Origin: Gemmatimonadota bacterium
Lineage (GTDB): Bacteria > Gemmatimonadota > Gemmatimonadetes > Gemmatimonadales > Gemmatimonadaceae
NCBI GenBank assembly: GCA_040389905.1
Contig: JAZJZK010000002.1
Span: 1 to 64,000 of the forward strand
Reading direction: 5' to 3'
DNA: 64,000 nt
Under the pieces are notes generated by a model. That model searched no databases. It was not told where the DNA came from and worked only from the letters and a program-made list of their open reading frames with translations. Position 1 is the first letter of the stretch. Every line of letters begins with the position of its first letter. Both the position numbers and the translations under genes were made by a program. Shown here one piece after another: positions 14,011 to 55,142 of the stretch.

Positions 14011-14857
14011 ATCGAGGCTGCGAGCCATACAGGAGCTGTACGCGCGGGACACGCCGATCGTGATGCTGACCGCGTATGACTACCCATCGGCGCGCATTGC
14101 CGTTGCCGGCGGAGTCGACATCATCCTCGTCGGCGATTCGGCGGCGATGACAGTGCTTGGCTACACCTCGACGCGTGAGATTTCGATCGACGCGCTGCTC
14201 GTTCTCACGAAGGCTGTGCGGCGCGCGACGGATACGGTGCCGATCATCGGCGACTTGCCGTACGGGTCATACGAGGCAAGCGACGAATTGGCCGTTCGTT
14301 CGGCGCGCCGTTTCGTCGACGAGGCTGGTGTGGACGCAGTGAAACTCGAGGGGGCTGGCGAGATGGTCTCGCGGGTTCGCGCGATCATTGGAGCGGGGAT
14401 TCCGGTGTTTGGTCACGTGGGGCTCTTGCCGCAATCCGTTCGCACGCGAGAGGGCTATCGCGCACGCGGCCGAGATCCTGAGCAGGCCCTGGGCATCGTC
14501 GCAGATGCGGACGCACTCGCGGCACTCGGGTGCTCGGGACTGATTGTCGAAGCGGTACCCGCGGCCGTGACGGCGATCATCACGGCGCGAATCGGCATCC
14601 CGGTCATTGGGATTGGCGCGGGGGTAGAGGCAGGGGGGCAGGTGCTCGTGTACCACGACCTGCTTGGATTCAGCGAGGGGCGGATGCCGCGATTCGTTCG
14701 CCAGTATGCCTCTGCGCGTGAGGAGTTGTCGGCTGCGGTGCGCGCGTGGACGTCGGATGTGCGGGCGCGGACGTACCCGGCGGTGGAGCACACGTACCCA
14801 ATCACGGATGAGGCGATGGCGGTCGTACGCGAACAGTTGGGTATTTCGAACGAGTGA
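14003..14857 (+). CDS. panB: 3-methyl-2-oxobutanoate hydroxymethyltransferase
   Basis: MLTAYD, LVGDS, AVKLEG, GHVGLLPQ, IGIGAG, GQVLVYHDLLG. Confidence 0.96.
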   Translation: MPESRLRAIQELYARDTPIVMLTAYDYPSARIAVAGGVDIILVGDSAAMTVLGYTSTREISIDALLVLTKAVRRATDTVPIIGDLPYGSYEASDELAVRSARRFVDEAGVDAVKLEGAGEMVSRVRAIIGAGIPVFGHVGLLPQSVRTREGYRARGRDPEQALGIVADADALAALGCSGLIVEAVPAAVTAIITARIGIPVIGIGAGVEAGGQVLVYHDLLGFSEGRMPRFVRQYASAREELSAAVRAWTSDVRARTYPAVEHTYPITDEAMAVVREQLGISNE

Positions 14858-14895
14858 GTCGCACCGTCAATCAGCTTTGTCAGGTGCTCGGTGAT

Positions 14896-14987
14896 CAGCC
14901 GCAGCTTACAGAGCAACAGGGGGTGTGGCGCTCAAGTGCATCGCACTCGTTACGCCACACCCCCTGAAAGGCCGTAAGCTGCGGCTG
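14896..14987. repeat. Long nested inverted repeat between convergent panB and the KamA-like gene (REP-like or bidirectional terminator)
   Basis: CAGCCGCAGCTTAC/GTAAGCTGCGGCTG and CAGGGGGTGTGGCG/CGCCACACCCCCTG perfect stems, with an inner AGTGC/GCACT stem. Confidence 0.8.
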
Positions 14988-14990
14988 GCC

Positions 14991-45515: not shown

Positions 45516-46678
45516 AGATTCCCTTTGTGTACAACTACCGGAGCGTGATGCAGCGCCCCGTGTCCACGGCGCTGACGGCGCTGGGCATTGGGCTCGTCGT
45601 GGCGGTGTTCGTCGCGATGCTTGCGCTCGCGAATGGCTTCATCGCGGCGCTCGTGGAATCGGGTTCGCCCGACAACGTGTTGTTGCTGCGTCGCGGCGCG
45701 GACAGCGAGTTGTCGAGTGGTATTCCGCGTGAGGCGGTGAGCATCATTGCCTCCTCGCCCCACATTGCCATCGGTGCGGACAACAGGCCGCTCATCAGCC
45801 CGGAAACGTATCTGGTGCTGAATCTGCGGCGCGCCGGCGGAACCGAATTCGAGGTCGCCAATGTAGTCGCCCGTGGCGTGTCGGCGAAAGCATTCGAGGT
45901 GCGGCGCAACATCAAGATCATCGAGGGAAAGCAGATCAGCTCTGGGCAGAGTGAAATCTGTGTGGGTTCCAAGCTGGCGGGCCGCTTCGAAAACGTCGCG
46001 GTTGGAAACGTGTTGCGGTTCGGCAATCGCGATTGGAACGTCGTGTGCCGGTTCACTGCAGACGGCTCGAGCTTCGAGTCGGAGATCTGGGGTGAGAACG
46101 AGCAATTCCAGAACGTCTTCCGGGGGAACAGCTTCCAGTCGCTCACCTTCCGGCTCAAGGATCCGGCGGCGTTCGACGAGGTGAAGCGCGCCATGCTCGC
46201 CGACCAGCGGATTCAGGTGGACGCGCACCGCGAATCTGAATTCTACGCGAGCCAGTCGGAACTCCTTGGAAACATCCTTCGCTTCCTCGCCATCATGATC
46301 ACGAGCATCATGGCGGTGGGTGCGGTGTTCGGCGCGGTGAATACGATGTATGCCGCCGTCAGTTCACGCACGCCGGAGATTGCGGTGTTGCTCACCCTCG
46401 GTTTTCATCCGCGCAGCATCCTCACGAGCTTTCTCGCCGAGTCGGCGCTGATCGCGTTCGTGGGAGGTATCGTGGGGTGCCTGCTGGCGCTGCCGATCAA
46501 CGGTGTCGTGACCAGCACGACGAACTGGGCGAGCTTCAGCGAGATTGCATTCGCCTTTCGCGTGACGCCTCAGCTGTTGCTCGCGGGCATCGTCTTTTCG
46601 GTGGTCATGGGAGTGGTTGGCGGATTTTTCCCAGCGCGCCGGGCGTCGAAGATGCCGGTCATCCAGGCGCTGCGATAA
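45512..46678 (+). CDS. ABC transporter permease (FtsX/MacB-type)
   Basis: GTGA overlap; NTMYAAVSSRTPEIA; FFPARRA. Confidence 0.9.
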   Translation: MKIPFVYNYRSVMQRPVSTALTALGIGLVVAVFVAMLALANGFIAALVESGSPDNVLLLRRGADSELSSGIPREAVSIIASSPHIAIGADNRPLISPETYLVLNLRRAGGTEFEVANVVARGVSAKAFEVRRNIKIIEGKQISSGQSEICVGSKLAGRFENVAVGNVLRFGNRDWNVVCRFTADGSSFESEIWGENEQFQNVFRGNSFQSLTFRLKDPAAFDEVKRAMLADQRIQVDAHRESEFYASQSELLGNILRFLAIMITSIMAVGAVFGAVNTMYAAVSSRTPEIAVLLTLGFHPRSILTSFLAESALIAFVGGIVGCLLALPINGVVTSTTNWASFSEIAFAFRVTPQLLLAGIVFSVVMGVVGGFFPARRASKMPVIQALR

Positions 46679-46721
46679 ACGGCGCCACACAAGCCTCGCC
46701 ACGGATTGAGGAACGCATCAA

Positions 46722-46795
46722 ACGGATGCAACGGAAACAACCAGATCAAGCGACTCTATCGAGCAGCTTGATCCGGCTGTTTCTGTCGCATCCGT
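46722..46795. repeat. Degenerate CGGAT-family hairpin
   Basis: ACGGATGCAACGGAAACAACCAGATCAAGC / GCTTGATCCGGCTGTTTCTGTCGCATCCGT. Confidence 0.65.
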
Positions 46796-46894
46796 AGAAC
46801 CCTCTCCTAGACCCAATGCTGTTCAGTTACGGTGAGACCCCGCCGACGCGGCTTTGTTTTCGATTGTCGCTCGGCGAAGAGCAAAAGCAAAGCC

Positions 46895-47088
46895 TACCGC
46901 AGAGGACGCAGAAGCTCTGCCCTCCGTGCACTCATTTGTGCGCCGGACCGCAGAGGGGCGCAGAGGACGGCGGAACAGATTTAGCGGGAGTTCGGTATCC
47001 GGTCTCTCGCAGTCCCTCTGCGACCCTCTGCGGTCCGGCGCATCGGAGGTCGCTCAGGGTGCGCATGGCCTCCGCGTCCTCTGCGGTA
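46895..47088. repeat. Nested inverted repeat of the ACCGCAGAGG 9-nt-period family
   Basis: TACCGCAGAGGACGCAGA / TCCGCGTCCTCTGCGGTA outer arms; TGCGCCGGACCGCAGAGG / CCTCTGCGGTCCGGCGCA inner arms. Confidence 0.85.
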
Positions 47089-47167
47089 AAGCTTATCGCT
47101 TTGCTGCAGGTCCTAACTAAACTAACTGAACCGTATTGCTCCTAGACCTAGATCGACAACTCCAGGA

Positions 47168-47292
47168 TTGTCACCTCGACCGAGCGTGGACTCGAGCGCG
47201 TGCATCCCAAAGCCAAAGCACGTGCAGGCCCTTCGCGGAGTTTACCCTCGAGGAGCGCAAGCGACGAAGGGCTCAGGGCGACAAAACGAGCG
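47168..47292. repeat. Degenerate REP doublet
   Basis: TTGTCACCTCGA.. and GTGCAGGCCCTTCG..CGAAGGGCTCAGGGCGACAAAACGAGCG. Confidence 0.65.
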
Positions 47293-47332
47293 GGCGAGCA
47301 GCCGACATGCAGTCCTCTGCGTGCAATTCAGT

Positions 47333-49240
47333 TCACTGTTTGTGCGAGCCATTCTCCCGAATTCTGCCGATACCAACTCCGCTCGACGTGTAGAGCGCCA
47401 AGGCGATTCGCCCCGCAAGCAAATCATTCCTCTCGACCTCACCGAGTGTAAGCGTGCCACGCGCTGACACAGCACCGGGCCCAGCGAGCCGCCGTAGCAC
47501 TGGCCCCTTGTGCGCTGCACTATCCCGGTCGAGGCTCACGCCAAACAGCCGATCGGCCGGGACGCCCGCGACTCGCACGACGTAGTCGAGGGACCGGCGC
47601 GTCGCGTCGAAGGTAAGAACAGCCTGTGCGGTTGCCGACCCGACCTTCGCATTCGCCCGGAACTGCCGAGGCGCCGGCGCCTTGCCCGCTACGAGCGGAG
47701 GCGTTGTGCTCGGCGCGCGCCTTGGATGCACTGACTGTTCATAATCGTACGCGAGTGCGAGCAACCGGGCGTCAGCCAGCGGGCGGCCGAGCATCTCGAG
47801 TCCGATTGGAAGGCCATCCGGGGTAAATCCCGCCGGCATGCTCAAGGCAGGCAATCCCGTAACCGCGCTGAGTTGGCAATTTGCGCCGCGCTGGGGCTCG
47901 TTGATCAGCGCTGCCTTTCGGCGCATCGTCGGATACACGAGCGCGTCGTAGCGATTCGAGTCGAGGAAGGCGGCCACGAGATCGCGCGCAACCTTCCGTC
48001 GCGCAAGCGCGGCGCGATACGCGTCGCTATCTCGCGTGCCCATCGCGTCTCGCCTGCGGAAGGCGACGTCCAATGCGGTGTGATACAGCCCGCGCTCGAG
48101 GATCTCTGTCAGCGACTTCACCGGCGCGCTCGGAATGGTCGCAAGGAAATCGCGCAGATCGAACTTGAATTCATAGTCGATGACGCCGGCCGCGCCGATG
48201 AGGCTGTCCAGGCTGGGAATGACGACATCCGTCACGACGGCGCCGCGTGCCTTCATTCGTTCGAGCGCGGCACGAACGACCCGGGCGCCCTCCTGATCAT
48301 CCGCTTCGGTGCCAAAATGGGCCGTGAGCACGGCGAGACGCGCGCCGCGCAACGACGCCGAGTCGAGCGACGCAACGAAGCGAGGAAGTGGCTTGCCGTC
48401 GAGCAGTCGAGTTGCCGAGTCAGCCGGATCGGCTCCGATCGTCGCGTCGAGCGTGATCGCGAGGTCCGTCACGGTACGCGCGAGTGGTCCTCCCACATCC
48501 TGCGTGTGCGACAGCGGAACGATGCCACTGATACTCGACAAACCCTTGGTCGGTCGCAGCCCGAAGAGATTGTGGACCGCCGAGGGAATTCGAATCGATC
48601 CGCAGGTGTCGGAGCCCATGGCAACGGCGGCAAAGCTCGCGGCGATCGCGGCTCCGCTACCTCCGCTGGAGCCGCCCGGATTCCGGTCGGGATCGTACGG
48701 ATTGCAGGTCTGGCCGCCGAGGGAACTGATGCTCGTGATGCCGGCCGCGAGCTCATGCATGTTCGACTTCCCAAGAATGATGGCGCCGGCGTCGCGGAGT
48801 TTCTGAACCTGGAAGGCGTCGAAGCCGGTGCGCAAGCCGGCGAGGGCGATCGAGCCTGCCGACGTCGGCATGTCGGTGGTGGAATAGTTGTCCTTGAGGA
48901 TGATGGGAATGCCATGCAACGGACCACGAAACTTCCCGCTGCGACGCTCACCGTCGAGCCGCGATGCTTCGGAACGAGCGTTCGGATTGAGCGCGATCAT
49001 CGCATTCAGTGAGGGTCCGCGATGATCGTAGGCTGCGATGCGCGCGAGGTAAGCGTCGACGAGCGCGAGCGACGTGAGACGGCCGGCGTTCATCGCGGCC
49101 TGCAGGTCGGGAATGCTCGCTTCGTAGACGATGTCCGTCGCTCCGTTCGACGGTTGCCGCTGCCCGAGTGCGTTGTCAGGCGGAAGACAAAGTGCGAAGG
49201 CCACAAGAACGAACACTTGACGATGCAACGTTTTGGTCAT
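47333..49240 (-). CDS. Secreted amidase-signature family enzyme with a CHRD-like C-terminal domain
   Basis: LHGIPIILKDN, GKSNMHE, GGSSGGS, GSDTCGSIRIP; signal peptide. Confidence 0.9.
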   Translation of the reverse strand: MTKTLHRQVFVLVAFALCLPPDNALGQRQPSNGATDIVYEASIPDLQAAMNAGRLTSLALVDAYLARIAAYDHRGPSLNAMIALNPNARSEASRLDGERRSGKFRGPLHGIPIILKDNYSTTDMPTSAGSIALAGLRTGFDAFQVQKLRDAGAIILGKSNMHELAAGITSISSLGGQTCNPYDPDRNPGGSSGGSGAAIAASFAAVAMGSDTCGSIRIPSAVHNLFGLRPTKGLSSISGIVPLSHTQDVGGPLARTVTDLAITLDATIGADPADSATRLLDGKPLPRFVASLDSASLRGARLAVLTAHFGTEADDQEGARVVRAALERMKARGAVVTDVVIPSLDSLIGAAGVIDYEFKFDLRDFLATIPSAPVKSLTEILERGLYHTALDVAFRRRDAMGTRDSDAYRAALARRKVARDLVAAFLDSNRYDALVYPTMRRKAALINEPQRGANCQLSAVTGLPALSMPAGFTPDGLPIGLEMLGRPLADARLLALAYDYEQSVHPRRAPSTTPPLVAGKAPAPRQFRANAKVGSATAQAVLTFDATRRSLDYVVRVAGVPADRLFGVSLDRDSAAHKGPVLRRLAGPGAVSARGTLTLGEVERNDLLAGRIALALYTSSGVGIGRIRENGSHKQ

Positions 49241-49319
49241 CGAAGTACCGTGAGGTCGGAAACGCTTGCGTTTGCCTGCCGCGACCACCACAATAGTCCC
49301 TCCAGAACTTCGAGAGTCA

Positions 49320-49403
49320 ATGATGAAGAAGCCATTCGTTGCGCCCGTACTCACGAGCGAAGACCGACTCACCACGCTTGGTAGCTCGTCTGTTCCAACC
49401 TGA
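49320..49403 (+). CDS. 27-aa small ORF, RiPP-precursor-like (MMKKPFVAPVLTSEDRLTTLGSSSVPT)
   Basis: GAGAG just upstream; [FY]xxPxL leader-like motif; terminator directly downstream; below the ORF-track cutoff. Confidence 0.5.
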   Translation: MMKKPFVAPVLTSEDRLTTLGSSSVPT

Positions 49404-49421
49404 GTACCAACCGCGCACTTG

Positions 49422-49453
49422 AAATCGCCAGCCCCTTTTGGGCTGGCGTTTTT
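49422..49453 (+). terminator. Intrinsic terminator
   Basis: CGCCAGCCC-CTTTT-GGGCTGGCG followed by TTTTT. Confidence 0.8.
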
Positions 49454-49540
49454 CATTCAACGCCGAGCGAGCATAGCCGACGAACGTGAGGCACAATACG
49501 TTTGTCGCCGCAGCCAACTAAATGGAGTAGATCCGGATCG

Positions 49541-50818
49541 ATGACCGAGCTCGAGGCTGGTCCAGGAAATAGGGGCCACGCGCCCGCACTGGGGCGCTGG
49601 TGGCAACTGTTTCTCGGCGTGATCTGCATGTCGATGATCGCCAACCTGCAATACGGTTGGACGCTCTTCGTCAACCCGATCAACGACAAGTATCACTGGG
49701 GGCGGCCCGCTATTCAGGTGGCGTTCACGATCTTTGTGCTGGTCGAGACGTGGCTCGTTCCCGCGGAAGGCTACCTCGTCGACCGAGTCGGGCCCAAGAT
49801 GGTGGCGGTCGTATCGGGGATACTGGTCAGCGCCTCGTGGGTCATCTTTTCGTACGCCGATTCGCTGTTCCTGTTCTACGTCGGGGCGGCGGTCGGCGGA
49901 ATCGGTGCTGGTGGTGTGTATGGCGCGTGCGTTGGAAATGCGCTCAAGTGGTTTCCAGACCGGCGTGGGCTCGCAGCCGGACTCACCGCGATGGGCTTTG
50001 GCGCGGGGTCGGCGCTCACGGTCTTTCCCATTGCCGCGATGATCAAGACGGCCGGCTACGAGGCGACGTTCTTCAAGTTCGGCATCGCGCAGGGCGCCGT
50101 CGTGTTCGTGCTCGGGTGGTTCCTGCTCGCGCCGAATGCGGGCCTCAAGGTGCCAGGAAAGTCAGGTGCGGCGGCTGTGGCAGCAACGAAAGAGTACACG
50201 CCGACAGAGATGCTCCGGACGCCGGCATTCTGGCTCATGTATCTCATGTTCGTCCTCATGGCCACTGGTGGTTTGATTGCGACGGCGCAGCTCACGCCGA
50301 TCGCCAAGGACATGGGCATCGCCGAGTCACCGGTGTTCATCCTGGGGATCACGCTGCCGGCGCTGACGTTCGCGCTCTCGATTGACCGTGTGCTGAACGG
50401 CATCAGCCGACCGTTCTTTGGTTGGATGTCCGACCATATCGGACGCGAGAACACGATGTTTGTCGCATTCGGGCTCGAAGGGGTGGCCATTCTTCTTCTG
50501 AACCAGTTCGGCGGTTCGCCGCTTGCGTTCGTGCTGCTCACCGCGCTGGTCTTTTTCGGATATGGAGAGATCTACAGTCTCTTCCCAGCCACATGCGCCG
50601 ATACGTACGGTCGTCGCTTCGCGTCCGCGAACGCCGGGCTGCTCTACACCGCGAAGGGAACAGCGTCATTGCTGGTGCCGTTGAGCAGCCTGATGGCGGC
50701 CGCGATGGGCGGATGGCACGCGGTCTTCATGGCGGCCGCCGTGATGAACCTGCTGGCCGCGGCGCTGGCGCTCCTTGTGCTCAAACCGATGCGGACGCGC
50801 ATGACGAACGGGACATGA
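49541..50818 (+). CDS. oxlT: Oxalate/formate antiporter (MFS)
   Basis: ANLQYGWTLFV, GNALKWFPDRRGLAAG, RPFFGWMSD.IGRE, GEIYSLFP, LYTAKG. Confidence 0.92.
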   Translation: MTELEAGPGNRGHAPALGRWWQLFLGVICMSMIANLQYGWTLFVNPINDKYHWGRPAIQVAFTIFVLVETWLVPAEGYLVDRVGPKMVAVVSGILVSASWVIFSYADSLFLFYVGAAVGGIGAGGVYGACVGNALKWFPDRRGLAAGLTAMGFGAGSALTVFPIAAMIKTAGYEATFFKFGIAQGAVVFVLGWFLLAPNAGLKVPGKSGAAAVAATKEYTPTEMLRTPAFWLMYLMFVLMATGGLIATAQLTPIAKDMGIAESPVFILGITLPALTFALSIDRVLNGISRPFFGWMSDHIGRENTMFVAFGLEGVAILLLNQFGGSPLAFVLLTALVFFGYGEIYSLFPATCADTYGRRFASANAGLLYTAKGTASLLVPLSSLMAAAMGGWHAVFMAAAVMNLLAAALALLVLKPMRTRMTNGT

Positions 50819-51822
50819 AGATCGCCGTCGTGGGTGCCGGTGCGATCGGCGGGTACCTGGGAGGGTGGCTGTCCGCCGCTGGGGAGGATGTCACCTTCAT
50901 TGCGCGAGGGGCGAATCTCGACGCGATTCGGGCGAATGGCATGCGCGTCGTCGGTGAGGATGGCAGGGAGGTCGTCGCAACCGACACGCGCGCCTACGCG
51001 GACATGGGCGAGGCGGGCCCGCACGACGTCGTGTTGCTGACCGTCAAGGCGCATCAGGTGGCTGCAGTCGCCGAGGATCTTGGGCAGCTCTGTCATTCGG
51101 GGACGACGATCGTCACGATGCAGAACGGCATTCCATGGTGGTACTTCCACAAGCACGGTGGGCCATACGATGGTGCTGCTGTTCGCGCCGCTGATCCGGA
51201 TGGTGTCATCAGCCGTCATGTGGATTCAGAACGAATTATCGGGTCGGTTGTCTATCCCGCGGCAACGCTCGTCGCGCCCGGTGTTGTGCATGTTGTGGAG
51301 GGCCGGCGCTTTGCATTGGGTGAATTGAACGGGCAGTGGTCCGCGCGTGTGGAGGCGATTTCACAGCGTCTCGTGAAGGCGGGTTTCAAGGCGCCGGTCA
51401 TCGCGGACATTCGCAATGAGATCTGGCTCAAGGTGTGGGGCAACATGAGCTTCAACCCGATTAGCGCGCTCACGCATGCGACCCTGGTGGATTTGTTGCA
51501 GTTTCCGCTCACTCGGGAACTCAGCATTCAGATGATGAGGGAGGCGGAGGCGATTGCCGGGAAGCTCGGCATCACGTTCCGGGTTGGTATCGACAAGCGG
51601 ATCGCTGGCGCCGAGAAGGTGGGGGCGCACAAGACGTCGATGTTGCAGGATGTGGAGTCGGGGAAAGCGATCGAGCTCGAAGCGTTGGTTGGTGCGGTGG
51701 TCGAGCTTGGAGTTCTCACTGAGACACCGACACCGCATATCGATGCCGTGTATGCGTGTGCGTCGTTGCTGGCGAAGACACTCTCAGATTCTGGCGGACG
51801 TCTGATTATTGCTGGTCCTTGA
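50815..51822 (+). CDS. panE: Ketopantoate reductase-family protein (PanE2/oxalyl-CoA reductase candidate)
   Basis: VVGAGAIGG, QNGIPWWYF, IWLKVWGN..FNPISAL, HKTSMLQD. Confidence 0.88.
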   Translation: MKIAVVGAGAIGGYLGGWLSAAGEDVTFIARGANLDAIRANGMRVVGEDGREVVATDTRAYADMGEAGPHDVVLLTVKAHQVAAVAEDLGQLCHSGTTIVTMQNGIPWWYFHKHGGPYDGAAVRAADPDGVISRHVDSERIIGSVVYPAATLVAPGVVHVVEGRRFALGELNGQWSARVEAISQRLVKAGFKAPVIADIRNEIWLKVWGNMSFNPISALTHATLVDLLQFPLTRELSIQMMREAEAIAGKLGITFRVGIDKRIAGAEKVGAHKTSMLQDVESGKAIELEALVGAVVELGVLTETPTPHIDAVYACASLLAKTLSDSGGRLIIAGP

Positions 51823-52413
51823 CTGGCCACAAAGACGAAGGGCTCATGCGGATTCGACGGATTGAGCGGATTTCACGGGACGCTTCTCATTGGCGGTGCA
51901 GACAAGTCGGTAGAACTTTGCTTCGGGACCAAAGTGCAGGACCATGCCCACTTCAATATTGGTGGATTTGAGGTAGTTGTACGTTTGGCGAATAGAGATC
52001 TTGTTCATTTTGTACGTCGATTTGGTTTCGACGATGAGTTTGTCGTCGACGATGAGATCCATGCGTTGCGTGCCAAGTTCGTGACCCTTGTACATGACAC
52101 AAACCCTGTACTCTCGCACGACCTTATGACCGCGCTCCCGCAACTCGATTTCTAACGCCTTTACATACAGCCGCTCCAGAAATCCGAACCCGAGGGTGTT
52201 GTACACCTCGTAGAAGGCACCGATCACAGAGCGTGTGAGCCGCTCTTCGAGTAGTTGTCCTTTAGGCATGACCGAATCTTGCGAATCAATGCCTGCCATG
52301 CGTCATCAAAAAACAACGGCCGCGGTGCAAATCCACGCAACGAAACTCGGAACCATCCGCATAATCCGCTAAATCCGCAGAATCCGCATAGAACCCTTCG
52401 TCTTTGTAGCCAG
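51823..52413 (-). mobile_element. Putative mobile element: GxxExxY gene between ~55 bp terminal inverted repeats
   Basis: Left end CTGGCCACAAAGACGAAGGGCTCATGCGGATT..; right end reverse complement CTGGCTACAAAGACGAAGGGTTCTATGCGGATT.. (19 of first 20 nt match); lies antisense within an operon. Confidence 0.75.
51844..52269 (-). CDS. GxxExxY protein, PD-(D/E)XK nuclease superfamily
   Basis: LGFGFLERLY, RMDLIVDDKLIVETKS, QTYNYLK, LHFG; start 52269 or 52299. Confidence 0.93.
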   Translation of the reverse strand: MPKGQLLEERLTRSVIGAFYEVYNTLGFGFLERLYVKALEIELRERGHKVVREYRVCVMYKGHELGTQRMDLIVDDKLIVETKSTYKMNKISIRQTYNYLKSTNIEVGMVLHFGPEAKFYRLVCTANEKRPVKSAQSVESA

Positions 52414-52415
52414 CG

Positions 52416-53948
52416 ATGAGCCATTCACCCCAAACGATCACAGATCTCTTGAAGGCAGGCGCAGATGACGCGCCCGCCCTCAGCACCCCTGGCGGAACGC
52501 CACTTTCGTACAACGCGCTCCGCCAACTCGTAGCCGACACTGGCAAGGCGCTCAACGAAAAGGCCATCGGCGCCGGCGACCGTGTCGCGATCGTCCTCGA
52601 CAACGGCCCGGAAATGGCCGCCGCGTTCCTCTGTGTCGGCGCCGCGGCAACAGCGGCCCCGCTCAATCCGAACTACCGCGCCGACGAATACGAGTTCTAC
52701 CTCACCGATCTGCGTGCAAAGTTGCTCATCGTCGGAGCAGGAAAAGAATCGCCCTCGATCGGCGTGGCAGAAAAACTCGGCGTTCCCATCGCCCGCCTCA
52801 CGCCCCATCCAGACAAGGGCGCGGGTAGTTTCACAATCGACTTCGGTGATTTCTCGCCGACAGAAGGCGCTGGTGCAAGTCGAGAAGTCACCCCCGACGA
52901 CACAGCACTCGTGCTGCACACGTCCGGCACGACCTCCCGCCCGAAAATCGTTCCGCTCGCCCAGAAGAACATCTGTGCCTCGGCGCGCAATATCCGCCAG
53001 TCACTCGCGCTCACGGCGGACGATCGCGGCATGGTCATCATGCCACTCTTTCACATTCACGGACTCATCGCCGCGTTGCTCGCGCCGCTTTCCGCAGGCG
53101 GTGAGGTGTCATGTACGACAGGGTTCAACGCACTGAAGTTCTTCACCTGGCTCGATGAAGTGAAGCCGACGTGGTACTCCGGTGTGCCCACGATGCATCA
53201 GGCGATCCTCCTTCGCGCGCCCAACAACGCCGACATCATCAAGTCACACCGACTGCGCTTCATCCGTTCGTCGTCGTCCTCATTGCCGACACGAGTGATC
53301 ACGGAAGTCGAAGCGCTATACGGTGTCCCGATTATCGAAGCGTACGGGATGACCGAGGCGGCACATCAAATGGCCACGAATCCGCTTCCACCGAAAGTTC
53401 GCAAGCCGGGTAGCGTGGGCCCATCCGGCGGGCCGGAAATCCGCATCGCCGACGAGACCGGCGCCACGGTGCCTGCCGGCGCAACCGGCGAGATCGTCAT
53501 CCGCGGACCCAACGTCATGACGGAGTACGAGAACAATCCGAAGGCCAACGCGGAAGCGTTCTACGGCGATTGGTTCCGCACCGGTGATCAGGGCGTGATG
53601 GACGAGGACGGTTACGTCAGCATCACCGGGCGCCTCAAGGAGATCATCAACCGCGGCGGCGAGAAGATCTCGCCACGCGAGGTGGACGAGATCATCATGG
53701 AGCATCCCGGCGTCCACCAATGCGTTACCTTCGGCATGCCGCACGACATGCTCGGCGAAGACGTCGCGGCGGCCGTCGTGCTCAAGCAAGGCGCTGACGT
53801 CACCGACAAGGAACTCCGTCAGTTCGCCGCCGTTCGTCTCGCGGACTTCAAGGTTCCGCGAAAGATCCTCATCCTCACGGAGATTCCGGTGGGTGCCACC
53901 GGAAAGCTCCAGCGCATTGGCCTCGCACAGAAACTGGGACTCGGATGA
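52416..53948 (+). CDS. Acyl-CoA synthetase, oxalate-CoA ligase-like
   Basis: LHTSGTTSRPK, PLFHIHG, VPTMHQ, EAYGMTEAAHQM, KEIINRGGEKISP, TGKLQR. Confidence 0.9.
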   Translation: MSHSPQTITDLLKAGADDAPALSTPGGTPLSYNALRQLVADTGKALNEKAIGAGDRVAIVLDNGPEMAAAFLCVGAAATAAPLNPNYRADEYEFYLTDLRAKLLIVGAGKESPSIGVAEKLGVPIARLTPHPDKGAGSFTIDFGDFSPTEGAGASREVTPDDTALVLHTSGTTSRPKIVPLAQKNICASARNIRQSLALTADDRGMVIMPLFHIHGLIAALLAPLSAGGEVSCTTGFNALKFFTWLDEVKPTWYSGVPTMHQAILLRAPNNADIIKSHRLRFIRSSSSSLPTRVITEVEALYGVPIIEAYGMTEAAHQMATNPLPPKVRKPGSVGPSGGPEIRIADETGATVPAGATGEIVIRGPNVMTEYENNPKANAEAFYGDWFRTGDQGVMDEDGYVSITGRLKEIINRGGEKISPREVDEIIMEHPGVHQCVTFGMPHDMLGEDVAAAVVLKQGADVTDKELRQFAAVRLADFKVPRKILILTEIPVGATGKLQRIGLAQKLGLG

Positions 53949-55093
53949 CACAGACACCGCCTCCGCCGCTCAATCCTCCCGAGCGTCTTCTCATGGGACC
54001 CGGCCCGAGCAATCCGGACCCTCGCGTGCTCGCCGCGATGGGTGCGAATCCCGTCGGTCACCTCGATCCGTATTTCGTCGACCTGATGGACCATACGATG
54101 GGCGCCCTTCGCGGCGTCTTTCGCACGGCGAACCACCACACCCTGCCGATTTCTGGCACCGGGTCTGCGGGCCTCGAAGCGATCATGCTCAACTTGCTCG
54201 AGCCAGGCGACAGTGCGGTCGTCTGCGTGATGGGCTACTTCGGACATCGGCTTGCCGAGCTCGCGCGGCGCTCGGGCGCAGATGTCCGCACCATCGAAGC
54301 AGGACCGGGCGAGATCATCGATCCCGCCGCCCTCGACGCGATGCTTACCGAGCGACCAGCGAAGCTCGTTGCCTTCGTGCATGTCGAAACGACGACGGGC
54401 GCGTGCCAGCCGATCCAACCGATGGTTGCCGCCGCAAAGAAGCACGGCGCACTGGTGGCGATGGACTGCGTCACGTCGCTCGCCGGTATCGAGCTCGAAA
54501 TCGACAAGTGGGGTGTCGACGCCGCTGGTTCGTGCACCCAGAAGGGGCTCGGCGCACCGGCTGGATTGGGTCCGATCACCGTAGGGCCCGCCGCGATGGC
54601 TGCGGTGCGCGCACGGAAGCAGAAGCCGCACACCTGGTACCTCGATCTCTCACTGCTCTTTCAGTATTGGGGCGAAGACGGCGCCACGAAGAAGCGCGCC
54701 TTCCACCACACCGCGCCTATCCAGAGTATCTACGGCATTCACGAGGCGTTGCGGCTCGTTCTCGAGGAAGGGCTCGAGGCACGCTGGGCGCGCCATCAGG
54801 CGGCGCACGAAACGCTGCTGCGCGGACTTGATCGTCTCGGGTTATCGCTCTTCACGCCCGCCGCAAACCGGTGCGCGACGATCAACGTGATCAACACGCC
54901 TGAGGGCATCGACGAAGCGAAGGTCCGCACCCGGTTACTGGACCTTGGCGTCGAAATGGGTGGAGGCCTTGGTGTGCTGGCGGGGAAGGTGTGGCGAGTT
55001 GGCGTGATGGGCTACAACGCGCAGGACGCGCGCGTCGAGCGTTTTGTCGGTGCGCTGGAGGAAGCTCTGTCTGCGGAGGGGTGGAGAGCGTAA
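53945..55093 (+). CDS. Alanine/serine-glyoxylate aminotransferase (class V)
   Basis: LLMGPGPS, SGTGSAG, HVETTTG, DCVTSL, TQKGL, WRVGVMG. Confidence 0.92.
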   Translation: MTQTPPPPLNPPERLLMGPGPSNPDPRVLAAMGANPVGHLDPYFVDLMDHTMGALRGVFRTANHHTLPISGTGSAGLEAIMLNLLEPGDSAVVCVMGYFGHRLAELARRSGADVRTIEAGPGEIIDPAALDAMLTERPAKLVAFVHVETTTGACQPIQPMVAAAKKHGALVAMDCVTSLAGIELEIDKWGVDAAGSCTQKGLGAPAGLGPITVGPAAMAAVRARKQKPHTWYLDLSLLFQYWGEDGATKKRAFHHTAPIQSIYGIHEALRLVLEEGLEARWARHQAAHETLLRGLDRLGLSLFTPAANRCATINVINTPEGIDEAKVRTRLLDLGVEMGGGLGVLAGKVWRVGVMGYNAQDARVERFVGALEEALSAEGWRA

Positions 55094-55100
55094 CAACAGC

Positions 55101-55142
55101 AGGTGCAGACCCCTCGACTCGCTTTGCTCGCTCGGGGTGACA
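55101..55142 (+). repeat. REP unit
   Basis: AGGTGCAGACCCCTCGACTCGCTTTGCTCGCTCGGGGTGACA, near-identical to 16565-16610. Confidence 0.85.

Follow-up and report, generated by a model that had tools for sequence, protein, structure and literature searches.

A strand-switching synonymous-site halo flanks a GxxExxY cassette between two host genes of a Gemmatimonadota genome

Why should two neighbouring host genes, parted by a small inserted cassette, carry mirror-image distortions of their synonymous codons? The question is raised by a 591-bp insert (51823-52413) in a stretch of 64,000 nucleotides (the window; contig JAZJZK010000002.1, assembly GCA_040389905.1) from a Gemmatimonadota genome (host genome G000; assembly 85% complete). 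Within an oxalate/formate-antiporter operon, the insert separates a panE-like 2-dehydropantoate 2-reductase gene (50818-51822, plus strand) from an acyl-CoA ligase gene (52416-53948, plus strand), and it carries a GxxExxY gene framed by inverted arms. A first-pass annotation had noted by eye that the 3' half of panE is rich in T-ending codons and the 5' part of the ligase gene in A-ending codons, both relaxing with distance, and had taken the pattern as independent evidence of repeated nuclease cutting. Here we find that the two-sided halo is real and specific to the lineage that carries the element, and we weigh what may have produced it.

Synonymous third bases were compared with an expectation model built on those of the 4,198 genes called genome-wide that scored at least 30, with terms for codon family combined with the next base, distance from the start, distance from the stop and operon position. 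Across the 900 bp left of the insert (left halo, 50923-51822), T-ending codons numbered 67 of 152 where 36.9 were expected (z 5.9), and A-ending codons 20 of 135 (29.0 expected). On the right (right halo, 52416-53315) the excess lay with A-ending codons (45/115 vs 24.4 expected; z 4.9), T-ending codons being found at 32/167 vs 36.8 expected. The narrower intervals singled out by eye gave the same picture. In the 3' half of panE (51150-51822), T made up 56 of 112 pyrimidine-ending synonymous codons (26.9 expected; z 6.7) and A 17 of 105 purine-ending ones (22.3 expected); in the 5' part of the ligase gene (52416-52900), A made up 27 of 54 purine-ending codons (12.7 expected; z 4.8) and T 18 of 94 pyrimidine-ending ones (21.3 expected). 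In successive 300-bp bins outward from the insert, z was 4.7, 3.5, 2.4 and -0.9 on the left and 1.9, 4.6, 1.9 and 0.8 on the right, with both sides back at baseline by about 900 bp. The codon richness and its fading are thus borne out by counting, and, given that the pattern persists with the start-distance, stop-distance and operon-position terms in place, it is not the ordinary 5'/3' codon bias that the first-pass annotation had named as the alternative.

The halo extends beyond C-to-T transitions. Shifts of G over C and of T over A run in the same direction as the transitions, so that the halo is a skew of G+T versus A+C rather than C>T alone: the top strand is poor in C and rich in T and G on the left, and poor in G and rich in A and C on the right, where it is the bottom strand that loses C. 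The sign of the skew switches at the element centre (52050-52150), the cumulative skew reaching its maximum at about 52,100. Expressed for the strand that runs 5' to 3' towards the element (the inward strand, meaning the top strand on the left side and the bottom strand on the right side), C and A were lost and T and G gained for about 1 kb. The T excess in the left halo was present after all four 5' bases (z 2.4-5.6), and neither a deaminase-type sequence context nor a spectrum limited to C was found at the focal halo. Compared with five orthologues, codon positions 1 and 2 drifted the same way as position 3, which is what mutation pressure predicts.

Of 1,891 scorable junctions in the host genome, the focal one ranked second by total score and first by its weaker side, at which it scored 5.2; the next junction reached 3.7, and the strongest of opposite polarity -3.1. 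Chance, ordinary codon bias along genes, foreign DNA or a replication origin or terminus could be invoked on the grounds that junction scores are over-dispersed genome-wide (standard deviation about 1.6), that position effects of the same sign exist throughout the genome, and that a locus beside restriction-modification-like genes with no recognised repeat (G000:C14:153001-154188; left z 8.0, right z 3.7) equals the focal site in total score. We consider these explanations hardly credible, since the halo survives position correction, is the strongest two-sided one among all junctions scored, and is replicated at most of the independent sites described below. AT-rich foreign DNA would raise both transitions on both sides, whereas here one is raised per side. 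A replication origin or terminus was likewise rejected, the background skew 3-40 kb away being 0.02 logit and the halo returning to baseline by about 1 kb.

The direction of the substitutions was read against about 20 orthologues, at synonymous sites with at least 70% agreement among five or more of them; an earlier polarisation with five orthologues had been too weak to call. Of the inward-strand sites, 29 of 93 had undergone C>T, and of the outward-strand sites 14 of 97 (P=0.009); any loss of C was counted at 41/93 and 16/97, respectively (P=4e-5). By side, C>T was found at 19 of 54 conserved C and G>A at 5 of 46 conserved G on the left, and G>A at 10 of 39 conserved G and C>T at 9 of 51 conserved C on the right. 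This is the polarised excess that the first-pass annotation had predicted. None of eight element-free orthologues was significant in the same test (P 0.13 to 1.0), nor did the composition of element-free orthologues show a halo at this locus. The polarised test and the halo-free orthologues together indicate that the focal skew arose in the lineage holding the insert. About a quarter of the expected C sites have changed (an excess of 30 of ~115 on the left and 21 of ~91 on the right), which calls for many rounds and not one event. The best explanation of the halo is a mutational footprint accumulated after the cassette had entered the panE/ligase junction.

In the closest orthologous operons both host genes abut or overlap with no insert between them, and in most of the empty orthologues shown the stop codon of the first gene touches or overlaps the start codon of the second. 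The panE-like gene (NF005089, 430 bits; cut-off 223) has orthologues of 77-80% identity in three genomes of the same genus, and orthologues of the ligase gene within the genus are 78-83% identical; the best NCBIfam match of the ligase, NF004511, scores 422 bits, under its cut-off of 650. The left arm of the terminal inverted repeat (51823-51880) begins directly after the panE stop codon and consists of a nearly locus-specific outer 23 nt followed by a short word recurring every 9 nt, and the right arm (52345-52413) ends 2 nt before the ligase start codon. Pairing is 91% between 51823-51845 and 52391-52413 and 89% between 51846-51872 and 52363-52389, and few copies of the repeat in the genome include the outer part. 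The inverted arms, about 55-60 nt long, give a stem of about 60 bp in folded single-stranded DNA (z -6.0 against 20 shuffles). At the insert ends, TGA stands left of the element and again 3 nt right of it, which fits a short decayed duplication or chance. No promoter-like site above chance was found in 51700-52600. One contig of sequencing run X1 spans 48500-55130 with no differences; X1 is possibly the source run, so that its agreement checks the assembly only. Four other cassettes (L197, L106, L183 and L199) have arms with locus-specific-looking stretches of 73, 89, 65 and 169 nt, respectively, in near-perfect mutual match, as does 51823-51845 in the window, which suggests that the two arms of one cassette copy from each other.

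The GxxExxY gene (51844-52299, minus strand) is a 151-aa open frame, represented in the protein collection by a 141-aa form; it is convergent with panE, and its stop codon falls within the left arm. Its product matches TIGR04256 (112 bits; cut-off 35) and PF13366 (117 bits; cut-off 22). Across 95 GxxExxY sequences, G29, E32 and Y35 are invariant, and the catalytic-type residues are intact (E32, E81 and K83 invariant, D71 at least 90%). The predicted structure (predicted local distance difference test score, pLDDT, 88) has the order H32-45, E50-60, E63-74, E78-83, H90-102, E107-113. By this predicted secondary structure and the conserved D71, E81 and K83, the protein is a putative member of the PD-(D/E)XK nuclease family; a sequence search of solved structures gave nothing below E 0.13. 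The function of PDDEXK_3 is given as unknown in PMC3424549, and no literature on GxxExxY function was found, as judged by titles and abstract openings. GxxExxY/PDDEXK_3 is a very common protein family: a single search returned 2,385 relatives, and the gene is present in 48 of 55 genomes of the host genus. The host gene downstream of GxxExxY faces it at 37 of 41 Gemmatimonadota loci, so that the cassettes lie antisense at host-gene 3' ends. At the 3' end of a MATE-transporter gene (G000:C14:56684-57276; L314-L343), a GxxExxY gene is present at 13 of the 26 loci of the genus whose downstream sequence was long enough to judge; the repeat words differ among genomes, and the site has been recurrently colonised.

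What process could act on the inward strand of both flanks? [quoted passage not shown] We propose that a break, nick or gap begins at the element and would be widened 5' to 3' in both directions, whereby the inward strand would repeatedly become single-stranded, or repeatedly serve as template of low-fidelity repair synthesis. Exposed C would deaminate (C>T), and exposed or miscopied A would yield A>G, as happens when the lagging strand is copied from its template. Where mismatch repair is defective in E. coli, mutation of both A and C is about two-fold more frequent on the template of the lagging strand (10.1101/346874), and this bias matches the wider spectrum of the halo. Somewhat less firmly, the GxxExxY protein may start the process by cutting at or close to the hairpin arms that frame its gene, mostly in its own cassette and more rarely in gene-less copies, and host repair enzymes would set the length of the halo. 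That repeated exposure of the inward strand was started by a GxxExxY PD-(D/E)XK nuclease is a reading on which we stand evenly divided. A nick widened 5' to 3', converging repair forks or a polymerase stalled at a hairpin would expose the same strands, so that polarity cannot single out a double-strand break. Of the host's repair genes, RecJ is present; MutS1, NucS and an AddB/RecB-type nuclease domain were not found in the 85% complete assembly, and an SbcD-like match was sub-threshold only. Near-complete relatives have MutS1 (5/5) and the AddB-type domain (3/5), and therefore nothing is built on these absences.

Is the halo a property of the family? Flanks of GxxExxY genes were assembled from other Gemmatimonadota: 55 loci picked by title from 80 matches plus 40 genus loci picked for long left flanks, from which 3 duplicates and loci with too few sites were dropped. 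Across 158 flanks, the shift of the inward strand (T/C minus A/G) was +0.46, +0.27, +0.29, +0.20 and +0.18 logit in bins out to 1,200 bp and +0.03 and +0.02 beyond; G over C behaved likewise. The halo was similar for neighbours facing the cassette with their 3' end (104) or 5' end (54), and control junctions at the same loci (338 repeat-free and 296 repeat-bearing flanks) were near zero. When loci were grouped by common neighbour gene into 57 independent sites, 46 were positive at 240-1,200 bp, and 24 of 25 within the genus. As a comparison we used 40 loci of cassettes that encode a four-helix-bundle protein (TIGR02436; L214-L253), of which 16 of 27 independent sites were positive over the same range, control junctions being positive at about half. 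The long-range mean z was 1.23 for GxxExxY versus 0.58 for four-helix-bundle sites (P=0.03 across independent sites, and P=0.003 when the genus is taken separately). Per flank, mean z was 1.08 for GxxExxY (123/156 positive), 0.20 for four-helix-bundle cassettes (38/75), 0.07 for repeat-bearing controls (149/287) and -0.07 for repeat-free controls (159/324). Close to the cassette, the four-helix-bundle loci have a strong G/C shift within 240 bp, with +0.92 logit G over C on the inward strand at 0-90 bp. In these cassettes T over A moves opposite to G over C, and several gene-less orthologous junctions in the host genome are skewed too.

Weaker halos of the same sign were also seen outside Gemmatimonadota, among 60 loci from four phyla with self-trained gene calls (866 control flanks were flat). 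They reached about 2 kb in Chloroflexota (18 flanks) and about 450 bp in Bacteroidota (34 flanks), and in Acidobacteriota (L254-L273; 40 flanks) they ran patchily to 3.5-6 kb and were largest at 2-3.5 kb, a far longer reach than in Gemmatimonadota; the samples behind these figures are small, the genomes of each phylum are related to one another, and the bins inspected were numerous. An AddB-type nuclease domain was present in 3 of 3 acidobacterial genomes checked. It is conceivable, though we lean somewhat against it, that GxxExxY cassettes in several phyla are widespread selfish nucleases which re-cut their own hairpin-framed cassette, and less often gene-less copies, with repair leaving kilobase-scale strand-switching halos.

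A number of observations weigh against a nuclease-driven footprint, at the focal site or in general. Base composition cannot demonstrate a cut, and the halo is no independent proof of cutting. Eleven of the 57 independent GxxExxY sites are negative, Planctomycetota (22 flanks) show a short G/C shift only, and two other GxxExxY copies in the host genome (on contigs C14 and C15) have weak or one-sided halos. The long-range change across the family is mostly a loss of A (about -0.2, at two-fold and four-fold sites alike) together with a gain of G over C, the gain of T being confined to the first 240 bp; cytosine deamination is accordingly not the whole story, and this spectrum could also come from the asymmetry combined with a slight local rise in GC. 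Halo strength is unrelated to shared or single occupancy of the site (P=0.78), and at 71 loci it did not correlate with arm score (rho -0.02), GC content at third positions of the gene, or gap length. A mid-gene switch of the skew was not seen when 79 GxxExxY genes from Gemmatimonadota and 60 from elsewhere were inspected, and the central switch at the focal element is therefore not used as evidence of a central cut.

To the same side belong the repeats that lack a gene. The host genome harbours at least eight intergenic repeat families at 603 of the 1,891 junctions that were scored; about 290 of these have REP-like palindromes. Its gene-less repeats show the same polarity, mostly within 250 bp. 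A gene-less repeat is carried by 54 of the 100 top-scoring junctions, compared with 14 of the bottom 100, and gene-less copies with at least four CGGAT motif hits have a mean z of 0.67 at 240-1,200 bp. The first-pass annotation had further described the panC/panB region left of the palindrome at 14896 as similarly G/T-rich: on the left this is so (z 3.3, mostly G over C in the final 300 bp of panB), and on the right it is not (z 0.4), so that the skew is one-sided, the junction ranking 115 of 1,891. In the window, two palindromes that belong to other repeat families and lack a gene (46678-47332 and 14857-14990) are weakly skewed in the same direction (S 1.8 and 1.5, G/C 2.0 and 2.7, respectively).

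Could the hairpin suffice? The arms might pair on either strand when it serves as template, whereupon the polymerase would stall and leave a gap on the template 5' side, exposing the top strand on the left and the bottom strand on the right, or a structure-specific host nuclease would cut; the GxxExxY gene would then merely mark large, long-lived hairpins. The arms do fold strongly, all tested tandem-arm families and the REP-like family in the host genome share the polarity over the nearest 250 bp or so, whether a 3' or a 5' gene end faces the repeat, and the dose effect is weak (rho 0.11, P=0.007), the four-helix-bundle cassettes have their strong short G/C halo, and in yeast inverted repeats raise flanking mutation via breakage and resection (PMC3681665). 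Several results tell against a hairpin acting by itself. Long-range mean flank z was 1.1-1.35 at gene-bearing sites, 0.0-0.7 at gene-less tandem-arm repeats, 0.2 at four-helix-bundle cassettes, 0.1 at REP-like repeats, with little beyond 240 bp (0.11), and about 0 at plain junctions; by independent site, the long-range halo is about twice as strong at GxxExxY as at four-helix-bundle sites. Moreover, about 480 nt lie between the arms, so that a stall would involve a long loop, and the missing relation to arm score noted above counts here as well. A difference between fork entry and fork exit was absent at 230 repeat junctions of the host genome, in a weak test given that the background skew was weak and patchy and repeat-free controls differed at long range. 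We regard the hairpin by itself, with the gene as its marker, as a rather unlikely cause. The gradient of the long-range signal and the intact catalytic-type residues favour a role for the enzyme. Of the proposed repeated cutting and repair, the polarity, the decay over about 1 kb and halos longer than those of four-helix-bundle cassettes stand; the polarity is also what a hairpin stall or a widened nick would predict. The claim that the halo independently attests nuclease activity does not hold as worded, considering the weaker same-sign halos of gene-less repeats and the family-wide signal of mostly A loss.

A different view puts the skew before the cassette: the sites might be long-standing hot spots of recombination or insertion, or cassettes might prefer gene ends that are already skewed, present occupancy being incidental. 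Several sites are occupied in many genomes, and at two shared sites the comparison of alleles with and without the cassette gave no separation, the empty ones being as skewed as the filled ones. At the MATE-transporter site, filled alleles score +0.15 (13) and empty ones +0.10 (13); at the second, 26 empty alleles have a G/C shift of +0.31 and 2 filled alleles are without it. Host-genome orthologues of the genes that neighbour cassettes in other genomes are likewise mildly skewed (+0.31 at 90-240 bp). At the focal locus, however, all eight element-free orthologues lack the skew. Furthermore, five cassettes have an orthologous junction in the host genome free of a GxxExxY gene or obvious repeat, with scores of -1.9, 1.1, -2.5, 0.8 and -0.3, which indicates, for this small number, that insertion needs no pre-skewed site. 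We judge site history improbable as the cause.

Selection on RNA is less probable again. Here, outward transcripts would be kept C/A-rich and unstructured, for instance for Rho to stop antisense read-through from the convergent nuclease gene. From the way the skew is defined, outward-read RNA must be C/A-rich on either side, and the downstream neighbour faces the nuclease gene at most loci, as given above. The halo is, however, equally strong upstream of the gene and at 5'-facing neighbours, where the host's own messenger RNA would be stopped; it spans over 1 kb, and it leaks into codon positions 1 and 2. Mutation of the non-template strand during outward transcription would predict the opposite sign.

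A longer footprint at sites that hold the gene is the first functional hint we found of the cassette acting on the DNA where it resides. If the favoured reading, exposure of the inward strand started by the nuclease, is true, small selfish cassettes raise mutation locally in housekeeping genes, where they would have altered about a quarter of the susceptible silent sites and slightly shifted amino-acid usage. On the wider reading of selfish, re-cutting nucleases in several phyla, a single genome would suffice to read break activity from the halo, and the width of the halo would reflect the resection machinery of the lineage.

Among known systems, REP/REPIN elements with RAYT transposases are extragenic palindromes with many gene-less and few gene-bearing copies. 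The GxxExxY repeats resemble them in this division; they differ in their enzyme, which is a putative PD-(D/E)XK and not a Y1-HUH protein, and a Y1 transposase (PF01797) was not found in the 85% complete host assembly. A literature search returned no relevant title on flanking compositional effects of REPINs, and no report of a mutation halo around a bacterial intergenic element was found in a literature that left out most subscription papers. Strand-switching footprints are known around eukaryotic breaks. The clusters at resected breaks in yeast and tumours (PMC6334234) share with the focal halo a pattern that has one site at its centre, changes once from C to G along the top strand and fades with distance; they are single-event, eukaryotic and often due to APOBEC or applied damage, whereas the halo is an accumulated bacterial synonymous shift in all four 5' contexts, with A loss too. 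Mutagenesis at inverted repeats in yeast similarly raises mutation on both sides via breakage and resection; that system (PMC3681665) is engineered, reaches up to 8 kb, depends on Pol zeta and involves no element-encoded nuclease. GRINS (PMC8256042) are stretches of bacterial coding DNA, about 1 kb long, with local, correlated GC and TA skews that are most pronounced at third positions and of unknown mechanism, and the focal halo has the same correlated skews with the same emphasis on third positions. GRINS are duplicated, gene-converted segments in polyketide synthase genes, whereas the halo lies in single-copy host DNA mirrored round an intergenic cassette: no copy above 80% identity was found elsewhere in the host genome, a protein search at E<=1e-100 giving one match each for panE and the ligase. 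Finally, the halo resembles the skew at a replication terminus, with terminus-like polarity and A and C lost on the strand that corresponds to the lagging-strand template (for the strand bias, see 10.1101/346874); unlike that skew, it is limited to about 1 kb on each side and recurs at many sites per genome.

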